From positions 1-10,338 of the IMG/VR virus record IMGVR_UViG_2534681772_000012: a DNA stretch of 10,338 nt, one strand, 5' to 3'. Source of the stretch: a virus. Its lineage: Duplodnaviria > Heunggongvirae > Uroviricota > Caudoviricetes. Below are positions 1 through 10,338 of this stretch, one piece after another. The notes under the pieces were generated by a model that worked only from the letters and a program-made list of their open reading frames with translations, searched no databases and was not told the origin of the DNA. The position numbers and the translations under genes were made by a program. Positions within the stretch are counted from its first letter, which is position 1, and each line of letters begins with the position of its first letter.

Positions 1-70
1 TCACAAAAACGTAACCACACTGCCAATAGCCAGAGAAATATAATTTTTTTTGCGATTTTTTAGAACTGAC

Positions 71-130
71 ACAACGTGAAACAACGAGACACCACGACGA
101 ACAACGGCGAACAATCTGGAACAAACTTGA
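71..130. repeat. Six tandem 10-bp units with ACAACG-like core (ACAACGTGAA/ACAACGAGAC/ACCACGACGA/ACAACGGCGA/ACAATCTGGA/ACAAACTTGA), helical-turn phased; putative protein-binding array upstream of alpA
   Basis: Read directly from sequence: units start every 10 bp from position 71. Function is inferred from the phasing and the position in the AT-rich leader upstream of the alpA-like gene. Confidence 0.4.
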
Positions 131-410
131 TTAACATCTGACTGACACCCTAAAAAGTTGATTTTCAGTCGTTTTACTGGCTTTTTGTACATTGGCGAAT
201 CACTCTTAAAAACATGTAAAAAAGGCGTAAAAACAGAATTTTATGCCTTTGCACCACAATGAATTAAAAGAGTTTTTATTCTCATTACCACACTTCTGTA
301 AAATGACCGCCGCCAGTGTTTGCCATTCCATAAACACCCTGACACAATCCGACGCACCACAACACAATAGGACACCAAATAACTCTTTAAGAAATATCAA
401 AGGGGGAATT

Positions 411-599
411 GTGTTAAGCACAGATCGCTTTATACGTGAAAAAGAATGTCAGCAACTTACAGGCCTGAGCCGTTCATGTCGGTACCGCCTGGAAAAAACC
501 GGACAATTCCCATCACGGCGTAAGCTCGGCGGTCGTTCCGTTGGCTGGTCTTTATCCGAAGTTCTGGCATGGAAGGAAAGCTGCGAGGCAGTTCACTAA
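411..599 (+). CDS. alpA: AlpA-family (phage Vis/Xis-like HTH) transcriptional regulator
   Basis: C-terminal 63 aa of ORF 243..599 (MLSTDRFIREKECQQLTGLSRSCRYRLEKTGQFPSRRKLGGRSVGWSLSEVLAWKESC) match the AlpA/Vis family length and HTH pattern. GTG start at 411 follows RBS AGGGGG (401-406); the in-frame extension back to 243 has no RBS and looks like leader. Stop TAA 597-599. Confidence 0.8.
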   Translation: MLSTDRFIREKECQQLTGLSRSCRYRLEKTGQFPSRRKLGGRSVGWSLSEVLAWKESCEAVH

Positions 600-651
600 T
601 CAGGCTGGCGGCACACCGCCGCCACCCATCCACTAATACAGAGATCTAACC

Positions 652-1842
652 ATGAATACTGGATATTCTCCCGAACAAGGGCGGGGCTTCGTTCGTCCTG
701 AAAAACAGAATCTGCAAAATTTTGCCGAAATTATTCCGGTTATTTCCGGCCTTACTGGCGGGAGTGAAACCAATATTGTTAACGCCAGAGCGTTGCAGAT
801 GTTTGATGATAAAAAGGGAGTAAATTTAACTTACACCCCTGACGGCAATCAGAATATGAGCATTATCTCTGAGTCAGGTTTCTACAAACTAATAAAAACA
901 AAAAGCGCCCCGTTCCCGGAGCGCCTTTGTGAACAATTAACCTACTGCGCAAAAAATGAATCTGAGCAGTGGGATTATATCAACCGTGTGGCGAAGCGCC
1001 ACAATTGCCGGATAACAGGCAAAACAAAGGCCACCCGCTACGGTGGCCCCTCGACACAAGCTACACGTTATCCCCAACGCATGAGCATCACCAACAATGC
1101 CACATTTGCGGCTGGTGGGCAATGTGATCAGTCAGATTTGGTTCGTTCCAAGGTTTGCAACGAGAGCTTTTTCCTGTGCTCTTTAAGGAATTTCTCAAGA
1201 GCAAAAGCACATGGCGCGAATCTTTCTGATTCATGCTCTATCTTTCTGCGCCGTCTTTTCCGTGCCGGTGATAATGTTTTGGTCAATTCTTTATCGGTCA
1301 TTGTGTTGTCCTGCATAGCAATGCGCCGTAATACCTTACACCACGGCGCTGATGGTGATTACTCTGGTTCTTTGGTCTTGCGACGCTGGAGTTCTTCGCG
1401 TGCAACGGTGACAAGCTGCCCGATTTCTTCCGCTGCTTTGATGCCGATTTGTTCGACCTTAGCCAGGGCATCCAGTGACGACACAAGGGGATTTTCTCCG
1501 CTGCCTTCTGCTTGGCGGCGGGCTATTTCTCCGCGCATGGCGGTTACGATAAATCCGGCATTGCTTTCGCCGTCCAGCTTAACGGATTCCATCCCTTGCA
1601 TAACATCTAGTGGGACTCTGACAGTTGTCAGTTGTGATTTTGCGTTTTTGTTAGCCGTTGCCATTTCTGAAACTCCTAATCATCGGTGTGTTTCAGTATA
1701 CACAAAAAAAGAAATACAAAAAGCCTTGACGTGTGTTTCATGCGCTCATAACATGAAACACACCAAAAGAATTGTTGAAATACAAAGAGCAACGCCCCGC
1801 AGTGCCGGAAACACATACGGGGCGTCTAACCACCAACGATAG
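652..1842 (+). CDS. Questionable ORF; at most an N-terminal remnant (~652-900) of a disrupted gene, faintly Bro-N/Rha-like (IISESGFYKLI)
   Basis: ATG-to-stop ORF from the track. After ~aa 90 the translation is Ser/Cys/Arg-rich, as expected for an antisense read. It runs antisense to two protein-like minus-strand ORFs and through two minus-oriented terminator hairpins. No convincing RBS before ATG 652. Confidence 0.2.
   Translation: MNTGYSPEQGRGFVRPEKQNLQNFAEIIPVISGLTGGSETNIVNARALQMFDDKKGVNLTYTPDGNQNMSIISESGFYKLIKTKSAPFPERLCEQLTYCAKNESEQWDYINRVAKRHNCRITGKTKATRYGGPSTQATRYPQRMSITNNATFAAGGQCDQSDLVRSKVCNESFFLCSLRNFSRAKAHGANLSDSCSIFLRRLFRAGDNVLVNSLSVIVLSCIAMRRNTLHHGADGDYSGSLVLRRWSSSRATVTSCPISSAALMPICSTLARASSDDTRGFSPLPSAWRRAISPRMAVTINPALLSPSSLTDSIPCITSSGTLTVVSCDFAFLLAVAISETPNHRCVSVYTKKEIQKALTCVSCAHNMKHTKRIVEIQRATPRSAGNTYGASNHQR
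891..924 (-). terminator. Putative rho-independent terminator for minus-strand transcripts
   Basis: GC-rich imperfect hairpin 905-924 (GCGCCCC/GGAGCGC, one mismatch) followed on the minus strand by TTTTTGTTTTTATT (reverse complement of 891-904). Confidence 0.4.
1021..1048 (-). terminator. Putative rho-independent terminator for minus-strand transcripts
   Basis: Perfect 7-bp stem GGCCACC (1029-1035) / GGTGGCC (1042-1048) with a 6-nt loop, followed on the minus strand by TTTGTTTT (reverse complement of 1021-1028); about 80 nt downstream of the stop of minus ORF 1128..1301. Confidence 0.45.
1128..1301 (-). CDS. Small basic hypothetical protein (~57 aa, MTDKELTKTLSPARKRRRRK...)
   Basis: Minus ORF 1128..1316; the second in-frame ATG (1301) has a weak AGGA-like RBS. 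Lies just downstream of the RHH-like regulator and upstream of the minus-strand terminator. Composition is protein-like but there is no recognisable family. Confidence 0.3.
   Translation of the reverse strand: MTDKELTKTLSPARKRRRRKIEHESERFAPCAFALEKFLKEHRKKLSLQTLERTKSD
1359..1664 (-). CDS. Putative ribbon-helix-helix-like DNA-binding regulator (candidate repressor of the island), 101 aa
   Basis: Strong RBS AGGAG 8 nt upstream of ATG (minus 1677-1673). Balanced protein-like composition; N-terminal beta-strand-like TTVRVPLDV followed by helix-loop-helix (MQGMESVKLDGESNAGFIVTAMRGEIARRQ) resembles the RHH/Arc-MetJ fold. Divergent from the rightward operon promoter, the classic regulator position. 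Confidence 0.6.
   Translation of the reverse strand: MATANKNAKSQLTTVRVPLDVMQGMESVKLDGESNAGFIVTAMRGEIARRQAEGSGENPLVSSLDALAKVEQIGIKAAEEIGQLVTVAREELQRRKTKEPE
1686..1763. promoter_or_regulatory. Divergent promoter/operator region: sigma70-like promoter TTGACG (1726-1731) - 17 bp - TAACAT (1749-1754) for the rightward operon, overlapped by a perfect 12-bp inverted repeat GTGTGTTTCATG (1731-1742) / CATGAAACACAC (1752-1763); a third GTGTGTTTCA half-site at 1686-1695; leftward -10-like TATACT (complement of 1696-1701)
   Basis: Hexamers and repeats read directly from the sequence; assignment as operator for the adjacent regulator is inference. Confidence 0.5.
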
Positions 1843-1861
1843 CAAGATTATCGAGGCTGCT

Positions 1862-2068
1862 ATGAGAAATCATACCATACACCCGCAAGGGCGGGACTCG
1901 CACAACCTGAATAAATACATCTGGCGTTTTATCGCCCTGAGTACGGCACAACCGCGCGTGATTACCATTGAGGCCACCAGCGAACAGGAAGCCCGTCAGC
2001 AATCACCGGCTGGCTGCGTGATGGTATTCGCCGCCCGTATTCGTCAGGGGGTGCACCATGTGCAATAA
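1862..2068 (+). CDS. Small protein, probably Icd-like (host cell division inhibitor Icd-like family of P4-type satellites)
   Basis: ATG 1862 with GAGG RBS; the track ORF uses an upstream TTG at 1772. Motif pattern YIWRF-ALS...EATSEQEAR...FAARIRQ matches my memory of Icd-like proteins. Stop overlaps the next start (ATGTGCAATAA). Confidence 0.5.
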   Translation: MRNHTIHPQGRDSHNLNKYIWRFIALSTAQPRVITIEATSEQEARQQSPAGCVMVFAARIRQGVHHVQ

Positions 2069-2525
2069 CACCCGTCCGGACGCAGCCGCCGAAGCAATCA
2101 AAACACTGATTGATGCGCTGATTGATATTTCTGTTATCGCGGACAGGGCGCATAAGCACGCTACCAGTGAAACAGAATATGCCGGGGCTTTCGTTCCTCA
2201 TTCGCTGGCGGTTATGCAACTTAGTGCGGATATGGCGCTGAATGAGGCCAAAGCCATCCTGATTGCTGATTGTGAAAATGGGGGGGGGGTTATGCGTGAT
2301 GATCGTTTTAATTCCCTGAAACAGGAATTTTCCGGCGTTCCTGATGATGCGGCTGATGCGCTTTCGTCAATGCCAGAGCTTATTAGAGCGGCTTTTTTCT
2401 TACTTTCCACGAGAGAATATAAATCAACGGGGCTTGATGTACTGAATATCGCCGCCGATTATGCGGAATATGTGGCAGAGGCGCGTTACAGAAGAAAATT
2501 TCCTGAGGATGTAAGCCATGCGTGA
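2058..2525 (+). CDS. Hypothetical protein (155 aa) containing an internal G10 homopolymer
   Basis: ATG 2058 preceded by AGGGGG RBS; translationally coupled to neighbours on both sides. No recognisable family. G10 run at 2280-2289 encodes GGG and is followed by an in-frame ATG at 2292. Confidence 0.55.
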   Translation: MCNNTRPDAAAEAIKTLIDALIDISVIADRAHKHATSETEYAGAFVPHSLAVMQLSADMALNEAKAILIADCENGGGVMRDDRFNSLKQEFSGVPDDAADALSSMPELIRAAFFLLSTREYKSTGLDVLNIAADYAEYVAEARYRRKFPEDVSHA

Positions 2526-2751
2526 TATTTACCACGAAACAATAGACCGCGCATTTCTTGCACTTTCTCACAGTGAAAACATGCTGGAAATATTGCGCAT
2601 ATGGCTTGAAACACTTGGCGACAATGAACGCGACAAACAAAAATCAAGAATTGCCACGGCATTAATAACGCTTCTTGAGCCTGTAATAATGGAACTGCAA
2701 GAAATAGATCTATTGCACGACAGATATAAAGAACAGCACACCGGAGAATAA
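2518..2751 (+). CDS. Hypothetical protein (77 aa)
   Basis: ATG 2518 overlaps the upstream stop by 8 nt; GAGGA RBS; protein-like composition; no recognisable family. Confidence 0.55.
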   Translation: MRDIYHETIDRAFLALSHSENMLEILRIWLETLGDNERDKQKSRIATALITLLEPVIMELQEIDLLHDRYKEQHTGE

Positions 2752-2756
2752 AAATA

Positions 2757-3056
2757 ATGAAACTTAAATATTCTGGCTTAACTGCCAGTGGCAACACTCA
2801 CCCTAAATTTACGCGCGGTGATATTTACCGCGACCAGTACGGCGGCACGGTAATGATTAAGGGCGTGGAAGAACGGCGCGTAATCTACCGCCGTGAAGGT
2901 TACGAATATGATTGCGTGATGCCTGTTTATCAGTTCCGGTGTGATTTTTCTCTGGTACAGACCGCGCCGCATAACGTGCCCACCAGCAACGCCAGGGCAC
3001 GGGCAAACATCCAGAAGCTGAAAACCATGATTAACGGATTCAGGGGCAAGAAATGA
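2757..3056 (+). CDS. Hypothetical protein (99 aa)
   Basis: ATG 2757 with GGAG RBS; stop overlaps the rep start (ATGA at 3053-3056); no recognisable family. Confidence 0.55.
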   Translation: MKLKYSGLTASGNTHPKFTRGDIYRDQYGGTVMIKGVEERRVIYRREGYEYDCVMPVYQFRCDFSLVQTAPHNVPTSNARARANIQKLKTMINGFRGKK

Positions 3057-4468
3057 AAAGCGCACCGAACTTAAAAAAACAGCCTTACGACAAAATGACC
3101 GAAGTCATTATTTTTGCGGGTAGTGATGCCTGGGCGCACGCGAAACAATGGCAGGAGCAGGACGGGCGACTTGCTGGCGACAATGTTCCGCCTGTATGGC
3201 TGGGAGACAGCCAGCTTGACGAACTGGCAGGCCTGAAAATTATCGACGATGGTCGCTATTGTGTCCGACTGTACAAGGCAGGCCACATCAAGCCGTCAAA
3301 TATTAATGCCATCGGGCAAAAGCTGGCGGCGGCAGGTGTACGGGATGCGAATTATTACCCTGAGGGAATGCACAGTCAGAAGCTGGAGAACTGGCACGAC
3401 TACCTGCAACGGATCCGCGAACAGGCAGAGCGCGGGGAAATACTTACTGACGAGCAATACAGCCAGCGAAAAACCACGCTACCAATGAGCATTGGATCTG
3501 CAGGGTACGACACACAGCTTGATTATGTCGTTAAGGGCGTGATTCCGGCTAATTCATTGTGCAGCACATACGGCGCGAGCGGTTCCTATAAATCGTTCCT
3601 CGCGTGTTCCTGGGCGTGTCATGTTGCCACGGGTCGCCACTGGGGAGGTCGCAGGGTGGCGCATGGTTCGGTGATGTATGTTGTCGGTGAAGGTGGCATT
3701 GGTGTCCCCCGCCGTATCAAGGCATGGGAAATCGTTAATGATGAACGGGTGAAAAATCTGTACCTGGTAAACCGCCCGATTTTTCCTGCAGCCCAGTTTG
3801 ATGTTGATGAAATGGTTATCGCATCCCGCCAGGTTGAACGGGAAACGGGTAAACCGGTACGCATGATTATTCTGGATACGCTGGCGCGTTGCTTTGGCGG
3901 TAATGATGAAAATGACGCGCGGGATATGGGGGCGTTTATCCGTGGATGTGACGAACTGAAACGACGCACAGGGGCCACGGTGCTGGTGGTTCACCATTCC
4001 GGCAAGGATGAAACAAAAGGGGCGCGTGGTTCCAGTGCATTTCGTGCATCTCTGGACGCTGAGTACCGGATCCGCCGCGAAGGCGCGGACAGTGAGGCCC
4101 TGGTTATCTCCTGCACCAAAATGAAGGACGCGGAGGAACTGAAAGAGGCTGCATATGATTTACGTGTGGTGGAGCTTTTTACCGACGCTGACAAGGAGTT
4201 AATCACGTCGCTGGTGGTTGTGGATAAGCCGCGCCCACCCGTTGAACTGGAGCGCATCGAGGAGGCCGGAAACAAGACGGAGAATCACGCCGCACTATGG
4301 GGCTGTATCCGGTCACGCACACAGCGCGGCGATAAATGCACTATCCCGTTGTTGCGCGATGATATGAAAAAGCTGGGGTATGAGATGAAAAACTTCCGGC
4401 GCTGGCTGTACAAGCTGGAAAGAGACGGCGTTATCGCTATTGACGGTGATGATGTGCGCCCACTGTAA
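3053..4468 (+). CDS. Replication initiator / RepA-like RecA-fold (AAA_25-type) ATPase, 471 aa; no primase domain recognised
   Basis: Walker A-like GASGSYKS and Walker B-like hydrophobic run ending in D (RMIILDTL) in the central region; RBS AGGGG; an iteron array follows the stop codon immediately, as in PICI/SaPI-type pri-rep/ori units. Confidence 0.8.
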   Translation: MKSAPNLKKQPYDKMTEVIIFAGSDAWAHAKQWQEQDGRLAGDNVPPVWLGDSQLDELAGLKIIDDGRYCVRLYKAGHIKPSNINAIGQKLAAAGVRDANYYPEGMHSQKLENWHDYLQRIREQAERGEILTDEQYSQRKTTLPMSIGSAGYDTQLDYVVKGVIPANSLCSTYGASGSYKSFLACSWACHVATGRHWGGRRVAHGSVMYVVGEGGIGVPRRIKAWEIVNDERVKNLYLVNRPIFPAAQFDVDEMVIASRQVERETGKPVRMIILDTLARCFGGNDENDARDMGAFIRGCDELKRRTGATVLVVHHSGKDETKGARGSSAFRASLDAEYRIRREGADSEALVISCTKMKDAEELKEAAYDLRVVELFTDADKELITSLVVVDKPRPPVELERIEEAGNKTENHAALWGCIRSRTQRGDKCTIPLLRDDMKKLGYEMKNFRRWLYKLERDGVIAIDGDDVRPL

Positions 4469-4669
4469 AAAGTGAGGCGCAAAAGTGAGGGGATAGCAGG
4501 AACTGAACAAAAAGCAACCGCGCCCCTCACTTTTCAATCTGTATATAGGCTCAAAAGTGAGGAATAAAAAACACATTGAAAAACAACATATTAGAATCAC
4601 AAAAAAACAAGGTTGGAAATCATGTGGGGAGCTTAAAAAGTGAGGCGAAAAAGTGGGGAGTAGTGGGGA
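4467..4669. repeat. Putative origin of replication: iterons (consensus AAAAGTGAGG) flanking an AT-rich core
   Basis: Copies at 4467-4477, 4481-4490, 4523-4534 (inverted), 4553-4562, 4635-4645, 4647-4657 (degenerate), plus degenerate 4621-4630 and 4661-4668; AT-rich stretch 4563-4620; directly 3' of rep. Confidence 0.6.
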
Positions 4670-4921
4670 ATGACCAGAAAAAGCAGAGATAAAACAGCAC
4701 CAAAATATCGCGCATTAGACATGACAGAGCACGCCTTAAAGGTGGCAATCAGAACGATAGACCGCCACGCCGGAGAAGGATACGCGAAAGCGCATCCCGA
4801 ACTGATAAGCGCATTCATGACCACGGCGGCGGCAAATTTTGCCACACTGACAGAACGGGAGATTGCCGAAGCGGAACAGGTGACAACCATCAACGTTAAA
4901 ACCGGAGAGCAGACAGCATGA
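4670..4921 (+). CDS. Hypothetical protein (83 aa), translationally coupled to ssb
   Basis: ATG 4670; stop TGA overlaps the ssb ATG (ATGA at 4918-4921); no recognisable family. Confidence 0.5.
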   Translation: MTRKSRDKTAPKYRALDMTEHALKVAIRTIDRHAGEGYAKAHPELISAFMTTAAANFATLTEREIAEAEQVTTINVKTGEQTA

Positions 4922-5340
4922 CAGCACAGATAGCGGCTTACGGGCGGCTGGTGGCTGACCCGCAGTTAAAGACCACCAGCAAGGGTACACAAATGACGAT
5001 GGCGAGTATGGCGGTCCCACTTCCGTGCAGCCAGGCAGATGACGGAACGGCGACGATGTGGTTATCCGTCCTGGCGTTTGGCAGACAGGCCGAAGCACTG
5101 GCAAAGCACCGCAAGGGTGAACTCCTGAGCGTGGCGGGTAACATGCAGGTAAGCCAGTGGACAGGCCAGAACGGCGAAACGCGGCGGGGCTGGCAGGTTA
5201 TCGCAGACAGCGTAATCAGTGCGCGAACGGCGCGACCGGGCGGCAAAAAAGGTCAGCAGGGGCAGGCCACTGACGCACTGAACAGGGCAAAACAACAGTC
5301 GGGGAATGATGATCCGTACGGCGATAATATACCGTTTTAA
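4918..5340 (+). CDS. ssb: Single-stranded DNA-binding protein (short, 140 aa)
   Basis: GGAGA RBS; OB-fold-like N-terminal pattern; Gly/Gln-rich linker; acidic C-terminal tail ...DDPYGDNIPF resembling the SSB signature DDDIPF. Confidence 0.65.
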   Translation: MTAQIAAYGRLVADPQLKTTSKGTQMTMASMAVPLPCSQADDGTATMWLSVLAFGRQAEALAKHRKGELLSVAGNMQVSQWTGQNGETRRGWQVIADSVISARTARPGGKKGQQGQATDALNRAKQQSGNDDPYGDNIPF

Positions 5341-5357
5341 ATTCTGCAAACAAAAAG

Positions 5358-5386
5358 ATGCCGGAAAAAAATAGATTTTCCGGCAT
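5358..5386. terminator. Hairpin with 11-bp perfect stem (ATGCCGGAAAA / TTTTCCGGCAT, 7-nt loop); terminator-like, T-tract only on the minus-strand side
   Basis: Read directly from the sequence, 18 nt after the ssb stop. On the minus strand it is followed by CTTTTTGTTTG; on the plus strand there is no T-tract. Confidence 0.4.
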
Positions 5387-5551
5387 GCTACATAAATCCC
5401 GACCAAAGGAAGTAAATACATTAACACGAATTATCAGCACTGAAGTTGTCACGGCATATTTTATACAACATTGCACTTGGTTGCATGTATTCGCATAGCA
5501 GACATCGGTAATAGAATATATTCACAATTATTTGTAATGAATGTAAAGAGG

Positions 5552-6598
5552 ATGAGTATGGTTGATTTATATTCGCCTACACAGCTTGTGCAGGTGGCTA
5601 ATGCTGAAGATGTGCAAAAAAAATTAAATGCGTTGTTTACCAGTTTGTTTTTCACTCGCTCGGTAATGTTTGAATCGAGAGACATTATTCTTGATACGAT
5701 CGACGATCCAAATATCCCGATCGCGGCGTTTTGCTCTCCTATGGTGGGCAGTAAAGTTTCACGAGATGAGGGATACGAATCAAAAACAATTCGCCCTGGC
5801 TATATGAAACCGAAAAGCAGCATTGATCCAAATAAGTTAGCTGTGCGCCCTGCTGGTGTATCACCTGAACAATACAATGCTTTTGGGGCGCGTAATATTA
5901 AAGTTAAACAGGCGATTGTAAATCAGGCTAAAGCTATACGTGCACGTATTGAATGGCTTGCTGTTCAGGCAATCACAACGGGGAAAAATATCATTGAGGG
6001 CGATGGTATTGAACGTTATGAACTGGACTGGAATATAAAACCACAAAATATTATCACGCAGTCTGGCGGTGCTGAGTGGTCAGGTAAGGATAAAGAAACT
6101 TTTGATCCAAATGATGATATTGAGAGCTACGCAGAATTTAGTGAGGGCGTCACTAATATCATCATTATGGGCGGTAATGTATGGAAGAAATACCGTTCAT
6201 TCAGAGCGATAAAAGAGGCTCTGGATACCCGCCGTGGTTCTAATTCCGAACTGGAAACGGCCCTTAAAGACCTTGGTGATTCGGTGAGTTTTAAAGGGTA
6301 TATGGGCGATGTTGCGATTGTTGTTTACAGCGGACGTTATACCGACGAGGACGGAACTGAAAAACATTTCCTTGATCCTGATTTGATGGTGCTTGGCAAT
6401 ACGGCTCTTCAGGGGATTGTCGCCTATGGCGGTATTCAGGATCCGGAGCTAACCCGAATGGGGCTGACTAAAGCCGAACTTGCACCGAAAAACTATATTG
6501 TGCCTGGTGATCCGGCTATTGAGTACGTACAAACGCACTCTGCACCACAGCCAATACCGGCCCGCATCAATCGTTTTGTTACCGTTCGCATTGGCTAA
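5552..6598 (+). CDS. Lambda gpE-like major capsid protein
   Basis: Translation from MSMVDLYSPTQL aligns along its length with my memory of lambda gpE (MSMYTTAQLL..., ITQSGG-EWS-DK-T-DP-DDIE-YA, TRRGSNSELETA-KDLG, GDVAIVVYSG-Y, MVLGNT, GDPA). Start 5552 by homology; ATG 5558 has better RBS spacing from AAGAGG. Stop TAA 6596-6598. Confidence 0.85.
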   Translation: MSMVDLYSPTQLVQVANAEDVQKKLNALFTSLFFTRSVMFESRDIILDTIDDPNIPIAAFCSPMVGSKVSRDEGYESKTIRPGYMKPKSSIDPNKLAVRPAGVSPEQYNAFGARNIKVKQAIVNQAKAIRARIEWLAVQAITTGKNIIEGDGIERYELDWNIKPQNIITQSGGAEWSGKDKETFDPNDDIESYAEFSEGVTNIIIMGGNVWKKYRSFRAIKEALDTRRGSNSELETALKDLGDSVSFKGYMGDVAIVVYSGRYTDEDGTEKHFLDPDLMVLGNTALQGIVAYGGIQDPELTRMGLTKAELAPKNYIVPGDPAIEYVQTHSAPQPIPARINRFVTVRIG

Positions 6599-6607
6599 GG
6601 GGGAGCA

Positions 6608-6850
6608 ATGGCTACTCATTACACTGAACTCATGTCTGGCACTGAAGCACTGGTTACTACGCTGGGGATATTTTCAGCCAATAAAGGGGTAATACCTGCG
6701 TTTACGCCACTGATGCAGGAAGATGCAACTGGTGCGCTAGTGGTATGGGATGGAACGAGCGCAGGCAAAGCGGTTTATGTTTCCGCTGTACAAATCGACA
6801 CTGAACCGCCCCGGGAATCCTGGAGACTAAACTCCCTGAGAAAGAGGTAA
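6608..6850 (+). pseudogene. Lambda gpD-like head decoration protein gene, 3'-truncated by IS629-like insertion
   Basis: RBS AGGGGGAG; TPLMQEDATGALVVWDGTSAGKAVYVSAV matches the lambda gpD region [29 protein letters not shown]. Homology ends at 6801, where the IS inverted repeat begins; the last ~16 codons of the ORF are IS-derived. Confidence 0.7.
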
Positions 6851-6855
6851 ACAGG

Positions 6856-7182
6856 ATGACTAAAAATACTCGTTTTTCCCCCGAAGTCCGTCAGAGGGCG
6901 ATTCGTATGGTTCTGGAAAGTCAGGGCGAATATGACTCACAGTGGGCGGCAATTTGTTCCATTGCCCCAAAGATTGACTGTACACCGGAGACTCTGCGTG
7001 TCTGGGTACGCCAGCATGAGCGGGATACCGGAGGCGGTGATGGCGGGCTCACCACCGCTGAACGTCAGCGTCTGAAAGAGCTGGAACGTGAAAATCGTGA
7101 ACTGCGCCGCAGTAACGATATCCTTCGCCAGGCTTCCGCTTATTTTGCGAAGGCGGAGTTCGACCGCCTCTGGAAAAAGTGA
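6856..7182 (+). CDS. IS3-family transposase OrfA (HTH/leucine-zipper part), IS629-like
   Basis: 108 aa, [30 protein letters not shown]...[36 protein letters not shown]; ends at the frameshift window. Confidence 0.9.
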
Positions 7183-8069
7183 TGCCACTGCTGGATAAGC
7201 TGCGTAAGCTGTACGGGGTCGGACCGGTATGCAGTGAACTACATATTGCCCCGTCAACGTATTACCACTGTCAGCAACAGCGACATCATCCTGATAAACG
7301 CAGTGCCCGTGCGCAGCGCGATGACTGGCTGAAGAAAGAGATACTGCGCGTATACGATGGGAATCATCAGGTATACGGTGTGCGTAAAGTCTGGCGTCAG
7401 TTGTTACGGGAAGGAATCAGGGTAGCCAGATGTACAGTGGCGCGCCTCATGGCGGTTATGGGACTTGCCGGTGTTCTCCGGGGTAAAAAGGTCCGCACTA
7501 CCGTCAGCCGGAAAGCCGTTGCCGCAGGCGACCGCGTAAACCGTCAGTTTGTGGCAGAACGTCCTGACCAGTTGTGGGTGGCTGATTTTACTTACGTCAG
7601 CACATGGCAGGGGGTCGTCTATGTGGCGTTCATCATTGATGTGTTTGCCGGATACATCGTGGGGTGGCGGGTCTCATCGTCTATGGAAACGACATTCGTG
7701 CTGGATGCTCTGGAGCAGGCGTTATGGGCCCGTCGACCGTCCGGCACAGTCCATCACAGTGATAAAGGTTCTCAGTATGTATCGCTGGCCTACACACAGC
7801 GGCTTAAGGAAGCCGGATTACTGGCATCAACAGGAAGTACTGGTGACTCGTATGACAACGCGATGGCGGAGAGCATCAATGGCCTTTACAAAGCGGAGGT
7901 AATACACCGTAAGAGCTGGAAAAACCGGACAGAAGTGGAACTGGCCACACTCACGTGGGTGGACTGGTATAACAATCGACGATTGCTGGAAAGGCTGGGC
8001 CATATCCCACCGGCAGAAGCAGAAAAAGCTTATTATGCTTCCATCGGAAACGATGATCTGGCAGCCTGA
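7179..8069 (+). CDS. IS3-family transposase OrfB (DDE catalytic domain), IS629-like; expressed as OrfAB fusion by -1 frameshift
   Basis: 296 aa with DDE-type motifs ([31 protein letters not shown]); overlaps orfA in the -1 frame. Confidence 0.9.
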
Positions 8070-8123: not shown

Positions 8124-9698
8124 TCATCGCACACCGCCTTTTTCCTGATGAAAGCGGCAACGAGCAATCACGGATTGAATTTCAAATTGTGTGGTTTCAT
8201 GGATTGAAATAAGTGGATTGCGGGCGTTACCAACACTGTCTGAAATGGAAATCAATTCATCGACTTCTTTAACTACACTCTCCAGCACCGCCTGATGGTC
8301 ACCATCAGTAAAGGGGCGGAAATACAGGCAACCGTAGCAGCAGCGTACTTCACTGAATGGGCATTTGCCATCATCTCTGGAGCAACCGCCAATCCCATCA
8401 TGCAACTCATCACCGATTATGCCGACCACGCGCTGGTCTTGCCATTTCGTTGAAGAGGTCAGTTCACCAGTCAACATCATAGCCACCATGTTTTGCCATA
8501 CCGGATTGATACCCAATGCTTTGGCTCGAATCAGTGCCAGTGCAGGCGTCGCCAGAATGTAATACTTGGCAACAGTAAGGGAGCTATGTCCCAGAATATG
8601 CGCAATTTCCTCGGCGCTGACCCCTTGCATAGCCAGTGAATGCCCCACGTTGTGGCGCAAGTCGGTCGGGGTAATGGTTGGCAAAGCCGCTTCGCCACGC
8701 TTTACGGCTGCCTGATAATCTGGCGGACTGAAACAGAGGAAGGCCTTGTTAATCGCTCTGGACACATTAAACGGTGCAGAGTTACTAAATTCAAATAGCT
8801 TGCCATCAGGTTTTAGTTGCGCTCGCTCGATATAGTGCCTAATCAACGCGCCGATTTCAGCTGGAATCGCCAAAAACAGACGTTCAGTCGTTACGTGCCG
8901 CTGTTTGGCGTAAGGAAGGAGTAAGCTATATCGTATTAATCCGGTTTCGGAGTTTCGGGTATCAATACGTAAATCTTTTACCGCCAGCTTGGCCAGTTGT
9001 ACCGGTCGGGCACCGGTGACATACGTCAGTCCCAGAATTACTGCATCTCGCATGGTGTTCAGACTGTAGTTTTCGCCATACCGAATCGCCACAGCCATTT
9101 CAAACAAGCCTTTACTGATCATGTTTTTTTCGAGGGGATCCAGAACATGATCAATTTCCTGATAGATTCCCCAGTCATGGGAGTGCGGGCGAGGGATGAA
9201 TTCGAGGTCTTCATAATCTTCGAGGGTAAAACCAGGGAATGCTTCGGTACAGAGGATTTTTAGGCCGAAAATGATAAAGTAGAAATATTGAGGTTTAATT
9301 TCCTGAGTTTCGAGGTAATCTTTCAACACCGTAAAAGTGAAAGCAGATTTGCTTATGCAATGATCAGTTGCCAAAGACCACGCATGGAGTACCCCAGGAA
9401 CCTGAGCTGGACACTTGGCAGATGCATAATGGAAGCAAATATATTTGATTAATTGGTTGCTGATTTTATCCTGACGAAAGTGGGCATAGCAGCGGCTTCC
9501 TGAATAATCGAATACCCAACTGTCACTTGTTGAGCTGATATATTTGTCATCAAAATGATCTGCCGATTTAAGATAAATACTAACTGGTATATTAACCTTT
9601 AAAATACTCTCAACAAATACAGGTGTGTAAATGTTGCTGTTCGACGCATTTAACTGTTTATTGATTCGACTCATATGCACTCCATTCATCGCATACAT
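8124..9698 (-). CDS. Tyrosine recombinase / phage-integrase-family protein, large (516-524 aa) with Cys-rich C-terminal region
   Basis: Catalytic-motif pattern in the central part: GARPVQLAKL (Arg box), DLRHNVGHSLAM (H-x-x-R), LGHSSLTVAKYYI (His/Tyr nucleophile box). The best RBS (GGAG) precedes the third in-frame ATG at 9674, so the true start may be 9674. Stop is 12 bp from the IS629 end. Confidence 0.75.
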   Translation of the reverse strand: MYAMNGVHMSRINKQLNASNSNIYTPVFVESILKVNIPVSIYLKSADHFDDKYISSTSDSWVFDYSGSRCYAHFRQDKISNQLIKYICFHYASAKCPAQVPGVLHAWSLATDHCISKSAFTFTVLKDYLETQEIKPQYFYFIIFGLKILCTEAFPGFTLEDYEDLEFIPRPHSHDWGIYQEIDHVLDPLEKNMISKGLFEMAVAIRYGENYSLNTMRDAVILGLTYVTGARPVQLAKLAVKDLRIDTRNSETGLIRYSLLLPYAKQRHVTTERLFLAIPAEIGALIRHYIERAQLKPDGKLFEFSNSAPFNVSRAINKAFLCFSPPDYQAAVKRGEAALPTITPTDLRHNVGHSLAMQGVSAEEIAHILGHSSLTVAKYYILATPALALIRAKALGINPVWQNMVAMMLTGELTSSTKWQDQRVVGIIGDELHDGIGGCSRDDGKCPFSEVRCCYGCLYFRPFTDGDHQAVLESVVKEVDELISISDSVGNARNPLISIHETTQFEIQSVIARCRFHQEKGGVR

Positions 9699-10085
9699 GG
9701 GAAAAGGTTGATTTCAGGGCTTCGTTATCAATCACAATTCGCTGAAGATTGGCCGTATTAGCCTGCTGAGATAGAAATCTTTTAGCGTAAAGATCAGGCA
9801 TATGGCTATTGTGACTCCAACCGCCAAGTAGCCGTAATTCATCCTTGGCTTCATCCATCAATCCAACGATAGAAAAGTCTATGGCTGCCAAGTGTGAGTT
9901 GGCCTTAATTTTTTGAAGTTTATCACGATAAATACGTTGAAGTGTTAAATAAGCCCAAGTATGCCGCGTTATATGAGGCGAGATGCTTTCAATGGCATCA
10001 TAATATTCATCTTTTTTATATTCAGGATACTGCACACTCATAATGTCATCAATACGGGTAAAGATATCATAGACTGCATGGTATG
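9658..10085 (-). pseudogene. C-terminal catalytic fragment of a second tyrosine recombinase, 5'-truncated by IS2
   Basis: PHITRHTWAYLTL (H-x-x-R box) and LLGGWSHNSHMPDLYAKRF (His...Tyr box) present; N-terminal domains absent. The first ~9 codons of track ORF 9658..10113 (MSGDSGGQS) are encoded by the IS2 terminal repeat. Its 3' end overlaps the start of the downstream recombinase. Confidence 0.65.
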
Positions 10086-10338
10086 TAGACTGGCCCCCTG
10101 AATCTCCAGACAACCAATATCACTTAAATAAGTGATAGTCTTAATACTAGTTTTTAGACTAGTCATTGGAGAGCAGATGATTGATGTCTTAGGACCGGAG
10201 AAACGCAGACGGCGTACTACACAGGAAAAGATCGCTATTGTTCAGCAGAGTTTTGAACCGGGAATGACGGTCTCCCTTGTTGCCCGGCAACACGGTGTGG
10301 CAGCCAGCCAGTTATTTCTCTGGCGCAAGCAATACCAG
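10086..10338 (+). mobile_element. IS2 (IS3 family) left end, partial; continues beyond the window
   Basis: TAGACTGGCCCCCTGAATCTCCAGACAACCAATATCACTTAAATAAGTGATAGTC... matches my memory of the IS2 terminal repeat and leader; followed by the IS2 orfA start. Confidence 0.85.
10177..10338 (+). CDS. insC: IS2 transposase OrfA (InsC-like), 5' partial at window edge
   Basis: ATG 10177; translation [54 protein letters not shown]... matches IS2 OrfA as I recall it; ORF open to the window end. Confidence 0.8.

Follow-up and report, generated by a model that had tools for sequence, protein, structure and literature searches.

Among the described systems closest to the locus considered here is the prototype PICI EcCICFT073, whose induction, replication and packaging have been shown to depend on a helper phage (Fillol-Salom 2018, PMC6092414). 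According to the same source, E. coli PICI origins, which were mapped functionally, consist of two iteron sets flanking an AT-rich region (Fig. 2a), and the EcCICFT073 rep gene and ori alone maintain a plasmid, in a cloned fragment that may have included the small open reading frame called orf83 below. Mageeney et al. [quoted passage not shown] We found no functional study of a PICI or satellite SSB, or of the small ORF, in the literature, where mention of the SSB stays at the level of annotation.

The natural standard of comparison is the E. coli SSB (P0AGE0; PDB 1eqq), a PF00436/TIGR00621 protein with one OB domain, a flexible linker and an acidic tip ending in IPF; the host sequence used here was verified as identical to 1eqq_A. 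Several mobile elements carry an extra SSB with a host-like C-terminal tip, among them conjugative plasmids and temperate phages of Staphylococcus, Streptococcus and Pseudomonas. The Ssb of conjugative plasmids can complement host ssb mutants. According to one report (bioRxiv 10.64898/2026.04.29.721553), SSB-like proteins of phages, with a tip resembling that of the host, interface with the ssDNA metabolism of the cell and trigger a defence system.

Here, we describe orf83 and ssb in a stretch of 10,338 nucleotides, referred to as the window, from the IMG/VR record IMGVR_UViG_2534681772_000012. Within an E. coli Gram-negative PICI, this region makes up the distal part of the replication module. 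A sequence-only reading had described it as a short, satellite-encoded SSB gene coupled to a gene for a small protein; the feature is real and that reading was correct. The module itself is ordinary and very common, and its SSB, though divergent, falls into a known family. What is new, at the level of these analyses, is the cassette behaviour of the pair, the basic linker of the SSB, and how widely and in what context the orf83 family occurs.

The satellite and its replication module

The element in the window belongs to the Gram-negative PICI type of phage satellite, which is common in E. coli. It has AlpA (gene at 411-599, Pfam Phage_AlpA E 1e-17), DUF4222, a replicase, iterons, and capsid genes resembling lambda E and D. 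The order is AlpA, YlcI/YnfO-like (minus strand), Icd-like, DUF4222, helicase, iterons, orf83, ssb, gpE-like and gpD-like (Table 1). The integrase and the right end of the island are absent from the window itself. Positions 1-6801 are found in identical islands in three complete E. coli genomes (99.9% identity in the KSC1031 island), and intact copies of the island have both integrase and TerS and span about 9.6 kb. The KSC1031 island, also of about 9.6 kb, lies between abgR and smrA and runs from the integrase, just upstream of the region that matches the window, to a small ORF after TerS, while a 92%-identical island is sited at a tRNA-Pro gene. Taken from the intact copies, the size and layout are those of a Gram-negative PICI, with an integrase end, AlpA, unidirectional genes and a length of about 10 kb. 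The satellite assignment made by the sequence-only reading is thus borne out by the gene set and by the intact copies.

Table 1. Features of the replication module and its surroundings, in window coordinates
Feature	Position	Strand	Basis or details
RepA-family (AAA_25) helicase, 471 aa, pri-rep equivalent of the window PICI	3053..4468	+	Pfam AAA_25 E 3e-44
Replication origin, two AAAGTGRGG iteron sets around an AT-rich stretch	4466..4669	.	motif counts, GC
orf83, small helical-hairpin protein (phrog_1231), function unassigned	4670..4921	+	phrog_1231 E 8e-51
ssb ribosome-binding region	4904..4921	+	GGAGAG 4904-4909, 8-nt spacer, ATGA 4918-4921
Satellite SSB, 140 aa: OB domain ~1-102, basic linker 103-129, acidic tip NDDPYGDNIPF 130-140	4918..5340	+	
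Perfect 11-bp-stem hairpin, ATGCCGGAAAA...TTTTCCGGCAT	5358..5386	.	terminator-like scan, scored on minus strand
Lambda gpE-like major capsid protein gene	5558..6598	+	Pfam Phage_cap_E E 1e-41; phrog_29
IS3-family insertion sequence	6802-~8110		orfA 6856-7182, orfB 7179-8069

The module shares its gene order with that of EcCICFT073, in which DUF4222, a replicase, an iteron ori, an ORF of 83-85 aa, ssb (with an ATGA overlap) and lambda E-/D-like capsid genes likewise follow one another; the gene pair of the prototype is located at 39285-39949 (locus coordinates), with an 85-aa ORF that overlaps a 136-aa SSB gene by 4 nt. The two islands differ in the replicase, a D5-type 'DNA primase family protein' in EcCICFT073 and a RepA/AAA_25 helicase in the window, and in their iterons. 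Dependence on a helper phage has been demonstrated only in the relative EcCICFT073. The window replicase also matches phrog_2850 and primase/helicase PHROGs, and in identical islands it is annotated as 'helicase RepA family protein'.

Unlike EcCICFT073, the island copy in the window is interrupted by an IS3-family element, which has broken the gpD-like head-decoration gene, now 80 codons long (6608-6850) against 113 in intact islands. Homology to the intact islands ends at 6801, and the window copy is therefore without the HTH gene, TerS and the right end. To the right of the insertion sequence, a gene for a 524-aa tyrosine recombinase (8124-9698, minus strand; weak match to NCBIfam 'integrase_1') is overlapped by a 151-aa ORF (9658-10113, minus strand) with a C-terminus that looks recombinase-like by eye and without a profile match. 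Neither of these ORFs is related to the PICI, and both may be part of a different mobile element. On the left side, a 155-aa ORF at 2058-2525 is a fusion of what are two distinct ORFs in the 99.9%-identical KSC1031 island (9661-9900 and 9893-10126, locus coordinates); PHROG has families for the fused form (phrog_2512) as well as for the separate ones (phrog_5146 and phrog_24341).

The AAAGTGRGG iteron is found six times as an exact match, always within 4469-4658, against an expectation of 0.16, and none of 200 shuffled sequences reached six. The exact copies are at 4469, 4482, 4525 (inverted), 4554, 4637 and 4650, with a degenerate copy at 4662, and the two groups flank a stretch of 27-32% GC at about 4540-4629. 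As described in PMC6092414, mapped PICI origins have this same layout, with the element's own replicase followed by two iteron sets around an AT-rich core. A degenerate tandem repeat, AGTGGGGA, occupies 4652-4659 and 4662-4669, and the ATG of orf83 follows immediately. The start of orf83 had been placed in the origin iterons, which holds in the sense that it lies at the edge of the array; it is not inside an exact iteron, since the ATG abuts the degenerate repeat. The GGGGAG of the last full iteron (4655-4660), 9 nt upstream of this ATG, is a plausible Shine-Dalgarno sequence.

At the other end of the region, the hairpin listed in Table 1 sits just 3' of ssb in the 218-nt gap that precedes the capsid gene, and a promoter-like site is found at 5490-5517. 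The A-run lies before the hairpin on the plus strand, so that the scan takes the structure for a terminator on the minus strand. A boundary between the replication operon and the late/capsid operon may lie here. Islands differ in the interval between ssb and the capsid genes, which in the window is no more than this gap: EcCICFT073 has a gene for a PerC-family regulator there (39960-40208, locus coordinates), and a ProQ/FinO-family protein is encoded 3' of ssb in the capsid-forming PICI of E. coli AST217 (7496-8026, locus coordinates). The site just 3' of ssb seems to be an insertion hotspot.

A divergent SSB with a host-like tip

By its matches, the 140-aa product is a genuine SSB that diverges from the host protein, and ssDNA binding is predicted. 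It exceeds the cut-offs of the family profiles PF00436 (58.2 bits against 26, E 9.7e-16) and TIGR00621 (58 bits against 53.95), and it matches 26 solved SSB structures in the PDB at E<=0.01, the best being the second OB domain of Thermus SSB (E 3e-11). The OB and SSB similarity on which the sequence-only reading depended is therefore far beyond chance in Pfam, TIGR00621 and the PDB. There is also a match to phrog_44, and 'single-stranded DNA-binding protein' is the PGAP label of the gene in every genome inspected.

Host SSB has 178 residues, 38 more than the satellite protein, in good agreement with the proposed difference of about 40. Identity between the two is 26% over 100 residues of the OB domain. 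Of the aromatic residues that stack on ssDNA in the E. coli protein, W54, F60 and W88 have conserved counterparts in the island SSB (W48, F54 and W80) and W40 has none, and the position of His55, which is at the tetramer interface in E. coli, is occupied by Leu. The linker had been described as a shorter Gly-rich one. Shorter it is, with 27 residues (window 5224-5304) against 56, but it is not Gly-rich: the host linker is rich in G, Q and P, while that of the satellite is Q/K-rich and basic, with a charge of +4.8, and the whole protein has a pI of 9.5. Considering the Leu in place of His55, the missing W40 equivalent, the basic linker and the high pI, the DNA-binding mode and the partners of the satellite SSB may differ from those of host SSB. 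The acidic tip is kept, as claimed, and ends in IPF like that of the host, with DNIPF in place of the DDDIPF of E. coli.

The linker segment ATDALNRAKQQ looks helix-prone by eye. Other ssb alleles carry different linkers (for example GNQPPAGG) with the tip kept, so the linker is modular in its own right. One other origin for the gene, a shortened copy of host SSB, was considered and rejected in view of the 26% identity and of the best solved relatives, which are the Thermus and Deinococcus SSBs.

Sequence comparison places the satellite SSB in a divergent clade that is carried mainly on satellites and was found in Escherichia, Shigella, Salmonella and Citrobacter. A search of 50,697 phage genomes turned up no close relative. 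The best matches there are the SSBs of the temperate phages mentioned above, and the satellite protein differs from these mobile-element SSBs in being only 28-30% identical to them. Within the clade, 107 of 120 cluster representatives have an IPF terminus, the exceptions being mostly partial sequences, and most have DDP[YF]xD upstream of it. Variable sites in ssb are distributed 18/11/79 over the three codon positions (46 alleles), indicating strong purifying selection.

Could the satellite SSB act mainly as a competitor or decoy, with the IPF tip titrating host SSB-interacting proteins or SSB-dependent proteins of the helper phage? Such a protein would contribute to helper interference, host takeover or defence evasion. 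This proposal gains from the strong conservation of the tip in spite of so divergent an OB domain and a short, basic linker, from the absence of a relative closer than 30% identity in the phage genomes, from the replication of rep plus ori without SSB (PMC6092414), and from the phage SSB-like proteins with a host-like tip that are cited above. However, the stacking aromatic residues for ssDNA (the W54, F60 and W88 equivalents) have been kept, and ssb is always found in the replication module beside ori and never in an interference or accessory region. We therefore consider a role mainly as a decoy unlikely.

The 83-residue protein and the behaviour of the pair

The two genes, of 83 and 140 codons, are read from the same strand and share an ATGA stop/start, so that both the small ORF and the overlap proposed for it are present. 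The Shine-Dalgarno sequence of ssb, as read from the sequence, is placed inside orf83. A profile search, which had been suggested as a check on the small protein, found an end-to-end match to phrog_1231 (E 8.2e-51; residues 1-82 align with positions 1-82 of the 83-position profile). This family carries no function, in keeping with the description of the protein as one of unknown function. Ten distant relatives of orf83 match the same profile. Neither orf83 nor an alignment of 56 family members matched anything in Pfam, NCBIfam or the PDB, apart from designed coiled coils at E>0.05. A tblastn search of orf83 against 50,697 phage records, P4 included, gave no match, and orf83 is thus not a detectable relative of P4 Cnr or of other P4 proteins.

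With the 56-sequence alignment, AlphaFold2 predicts a confident helical hairpin (pLDDT 85.7; helices 11-34 and 43-80), and the nearly invariant motif D-x3-G-x-GYA-x3-P-x-L is placed at its turn; the protein is probably dimeric. Foldseek searches with both AlphaFold2 models (pLDDT 70.7 and 85.7) gave no matches in the PDB and nothing below E = 3 in BFVD. In the window protein, the conserved turn reads G-x-GYAK-x-HPEL and is preceded by a basic N-terminal tail (residues 1-16, charge +4.5).

The pair has spread widely. The 671 nt that contain it match 1867 of 5426 complete E. coli genomes (34%), and 1454 of those 1867 carry both genes, counted as one place covering at least 80% of the query. We compared 80 IMG/VR loci in which the SSB is at least 95% identical to that of the window. 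In 78 of them orf83 lies upstream of ssb with the ATGA kept. The replicases of these loci are D5-type (36), cross-hitting D5 and DUF927 (20), RepA/AAA_25 (10) or DUF927 (5). Standing as it does behind at least three kinds of replicase, the pair behaves as a mobile cassette.

The borders of the cassette are informative as well. The first ~17 codons of orf83 change with the neighbouring origin, and identity of orf83 across the compared loci ranges from 77 to 100%. In the capsid-forming PICI of E. coli AST217, which has a DUF927 replicase and an HK97 capsid set, ssb comes directly after different iterons (ATAACCCGC repeats), and the sequence is homologous to the window only from a point 37 nt ahead of the ssb start codon (6800-7040, locus coordinates). 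The same 37 nt thus precede ssb there with no upstream ORF. Retention of only the last 37 nt of orf83 points to a recombination junction inside its 3' end, and mosaic junctions lie in both ends of the gene. The 3' end, the last 12-14 codons, on this evidence doubles as the translation-initiation region of ssb. Translational coupling of ssb to orf83 is suggested by the overlap and appears not to be obligatory, since capsid-forming PICIs carry ssb with the 37-nt leader but without orf83.

This dual use of the 3' end raises the question of whether orf83 has any function as a protein. It might amount to no more than a leader ORF, or result from the presence of the origin, and its translation would then only deliver ribosomes to ssb. 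The last 14 codons, where variable sites fall 6/6/8 by codon position, have no third-position bias; the 3' end is the sole part retained where orf83 is absent; and the N-terminal codons vary with the origin. All three observations speak for a leader ORF. The core of the gene, however, behaves quite differently. Variable sites by codon position are 21/16/47 over a 66-codon core (45 alleles) and 7/2/20 in codons 20-52 of the aligned block, a third-position bias that marks orf83 as a real gene under purifying selection on the protein. The confident AlphaFold2 model also argues against a leader ORF, as does the size of the family that shares the turn motif, most of which has no ssb downstream. A function limited to delivering ribosomes is accordingly very improbable.

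That family is large. An exhaustive profile search at E<=0.001 found 660 cluster representatives (50% identity clusters), mostly of 70-110 aa, which span the Proteobacteria and beyond, and every named representative is labelled hypothetical. Close homologues of orf83 are confined to Escherichia, Shigella and Citrobacter. Among 18 distant loci (14 genome loci and 4 contigs), eight adjoin a mobile-element primase-helicase (DUF927, D5_N/DUF5906 or PrimPol-DUF3987), including one in which the orf83 relative lies between the replication and lysis genes of a complete temperate-phage layout; several of the remaining loci are in regions of prophage or integrase genes. No SSB lies within ~6 kb in any of the 18. 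A conserved orf83-SSB pairing outside the Enterobacteriaceae was rejected on this count (0/18).

Within the enterobacterial islands, orf83 and the SSB could still form a specific two-protein unit, in which orf83 binds or regulates the tail of the SSB, or controls the loading of the SSB at the origin, and the ATGA overlap serves to fix the stoichiometry. The order orf83-ATGA-ssb recurs in EcCICFT073 and in nearly all of the 80 loci whatever the replicase type, and the basic N-terminal tail of orf83 could meet the acidic tip of the SSB. Several observations speak against such a unit: the distant relatives lack a nearby SSB, the capsid-forming PICIs keep ssb and its leader without orf83, the basic tail is not conserved in the distant relatives, and the nearly constant SSB of the compared loci goes with an orf83 of variable identity, with no sign of co-variation. 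A dedicated partnership of the two proteins is thus rather improbable. The distant orf83 genes without SSB and the capsid-forming PICIs without orf83 suggest instead that the adjacency may reflect linkage and not joint function.

A proposed role in satellite replication

The reading that we favour, and consider reasonably probable, is that the SSB serves as the satellite's own ssDNA coat, with its tip recruiting host SSB-interacting proteins, and that orf83 is a generic, probably dimeric accessory of the replication module. Under this model, induction of the island by a helper phage would cause the early operon to be transcribed through the origin, and ribosomes would translate orf83 and then ssb, using the ssb gene's own GGAG Shine-Dalgarno sequence and the ATGA overlap. 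The SSB would most likely oligomerise and coat the single-stranded DNA exposed by the island helicase. The DDPYGDNIPF tip would then bring host SSB-interacting proteins (e.g. the Pol III chi subunit and primosome or repair factors) to the island forks, which would provide the satellite with SSB of its own during joint replication with the helper. Orf83 would act on a shared component, of the host or of the DNA, and would not be dedicated to a single replicase or to the SSB.

The generic role given to orf83 follows from the company that its relatives keep. At least four unrelated types of primase-helicase accompany the family (RepA/AAA_25, D5_N-DUF5906, DUF927 and PrimPol-DUF3987), and relatives that stand beside unrelated primase-helicases in both phages and satellites are best read as a generic accessory of mobile-element replication. 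Since rep and ori maintain a plasmid (PMC6092414), the SSB and orf83 are probably accessory and not essential for origin firing.

The gene identities, the overlap, the iterons, the conservation and the distribution of the pair are direct observations, and the model adds to them predicted ssDNA binding, oligomerisation, partner recruitment and translational coupling, and a putative role for orf83. A wider generalization is also conceivable, namely that the orf83 family is a widespread, unnamed, general accessory of mobile-element replication that has become fixed beside a basic-linker SSB in enterobacterial PICIs. On this view, one possible role of orf83 would be to connect element helicases that load themselves with the host replisome or with SSB. 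We put this forward tentatively, as less likely than not.

PICIs are among the most common mobile elements of E. coli, the cassette alone being present in 34% of complete genomes, and knowledge of how they replicate alongside a helper phage extends no further than Pri-Rep and ori. Against this background the yield of the present analysis is modest: an annotation is confirmed, the pair is recognized as a shuffling cassette, and an unnamed family of small proteins is flagged in the replication modules of mobile elements. Nevertheless, the presence on the island of an SSB whose putative partner-recruiting tip is conserved suggests that satellites make their own provision for reaching the host replisome, and the satellite SSB could also affect helper interference or defence sensing.
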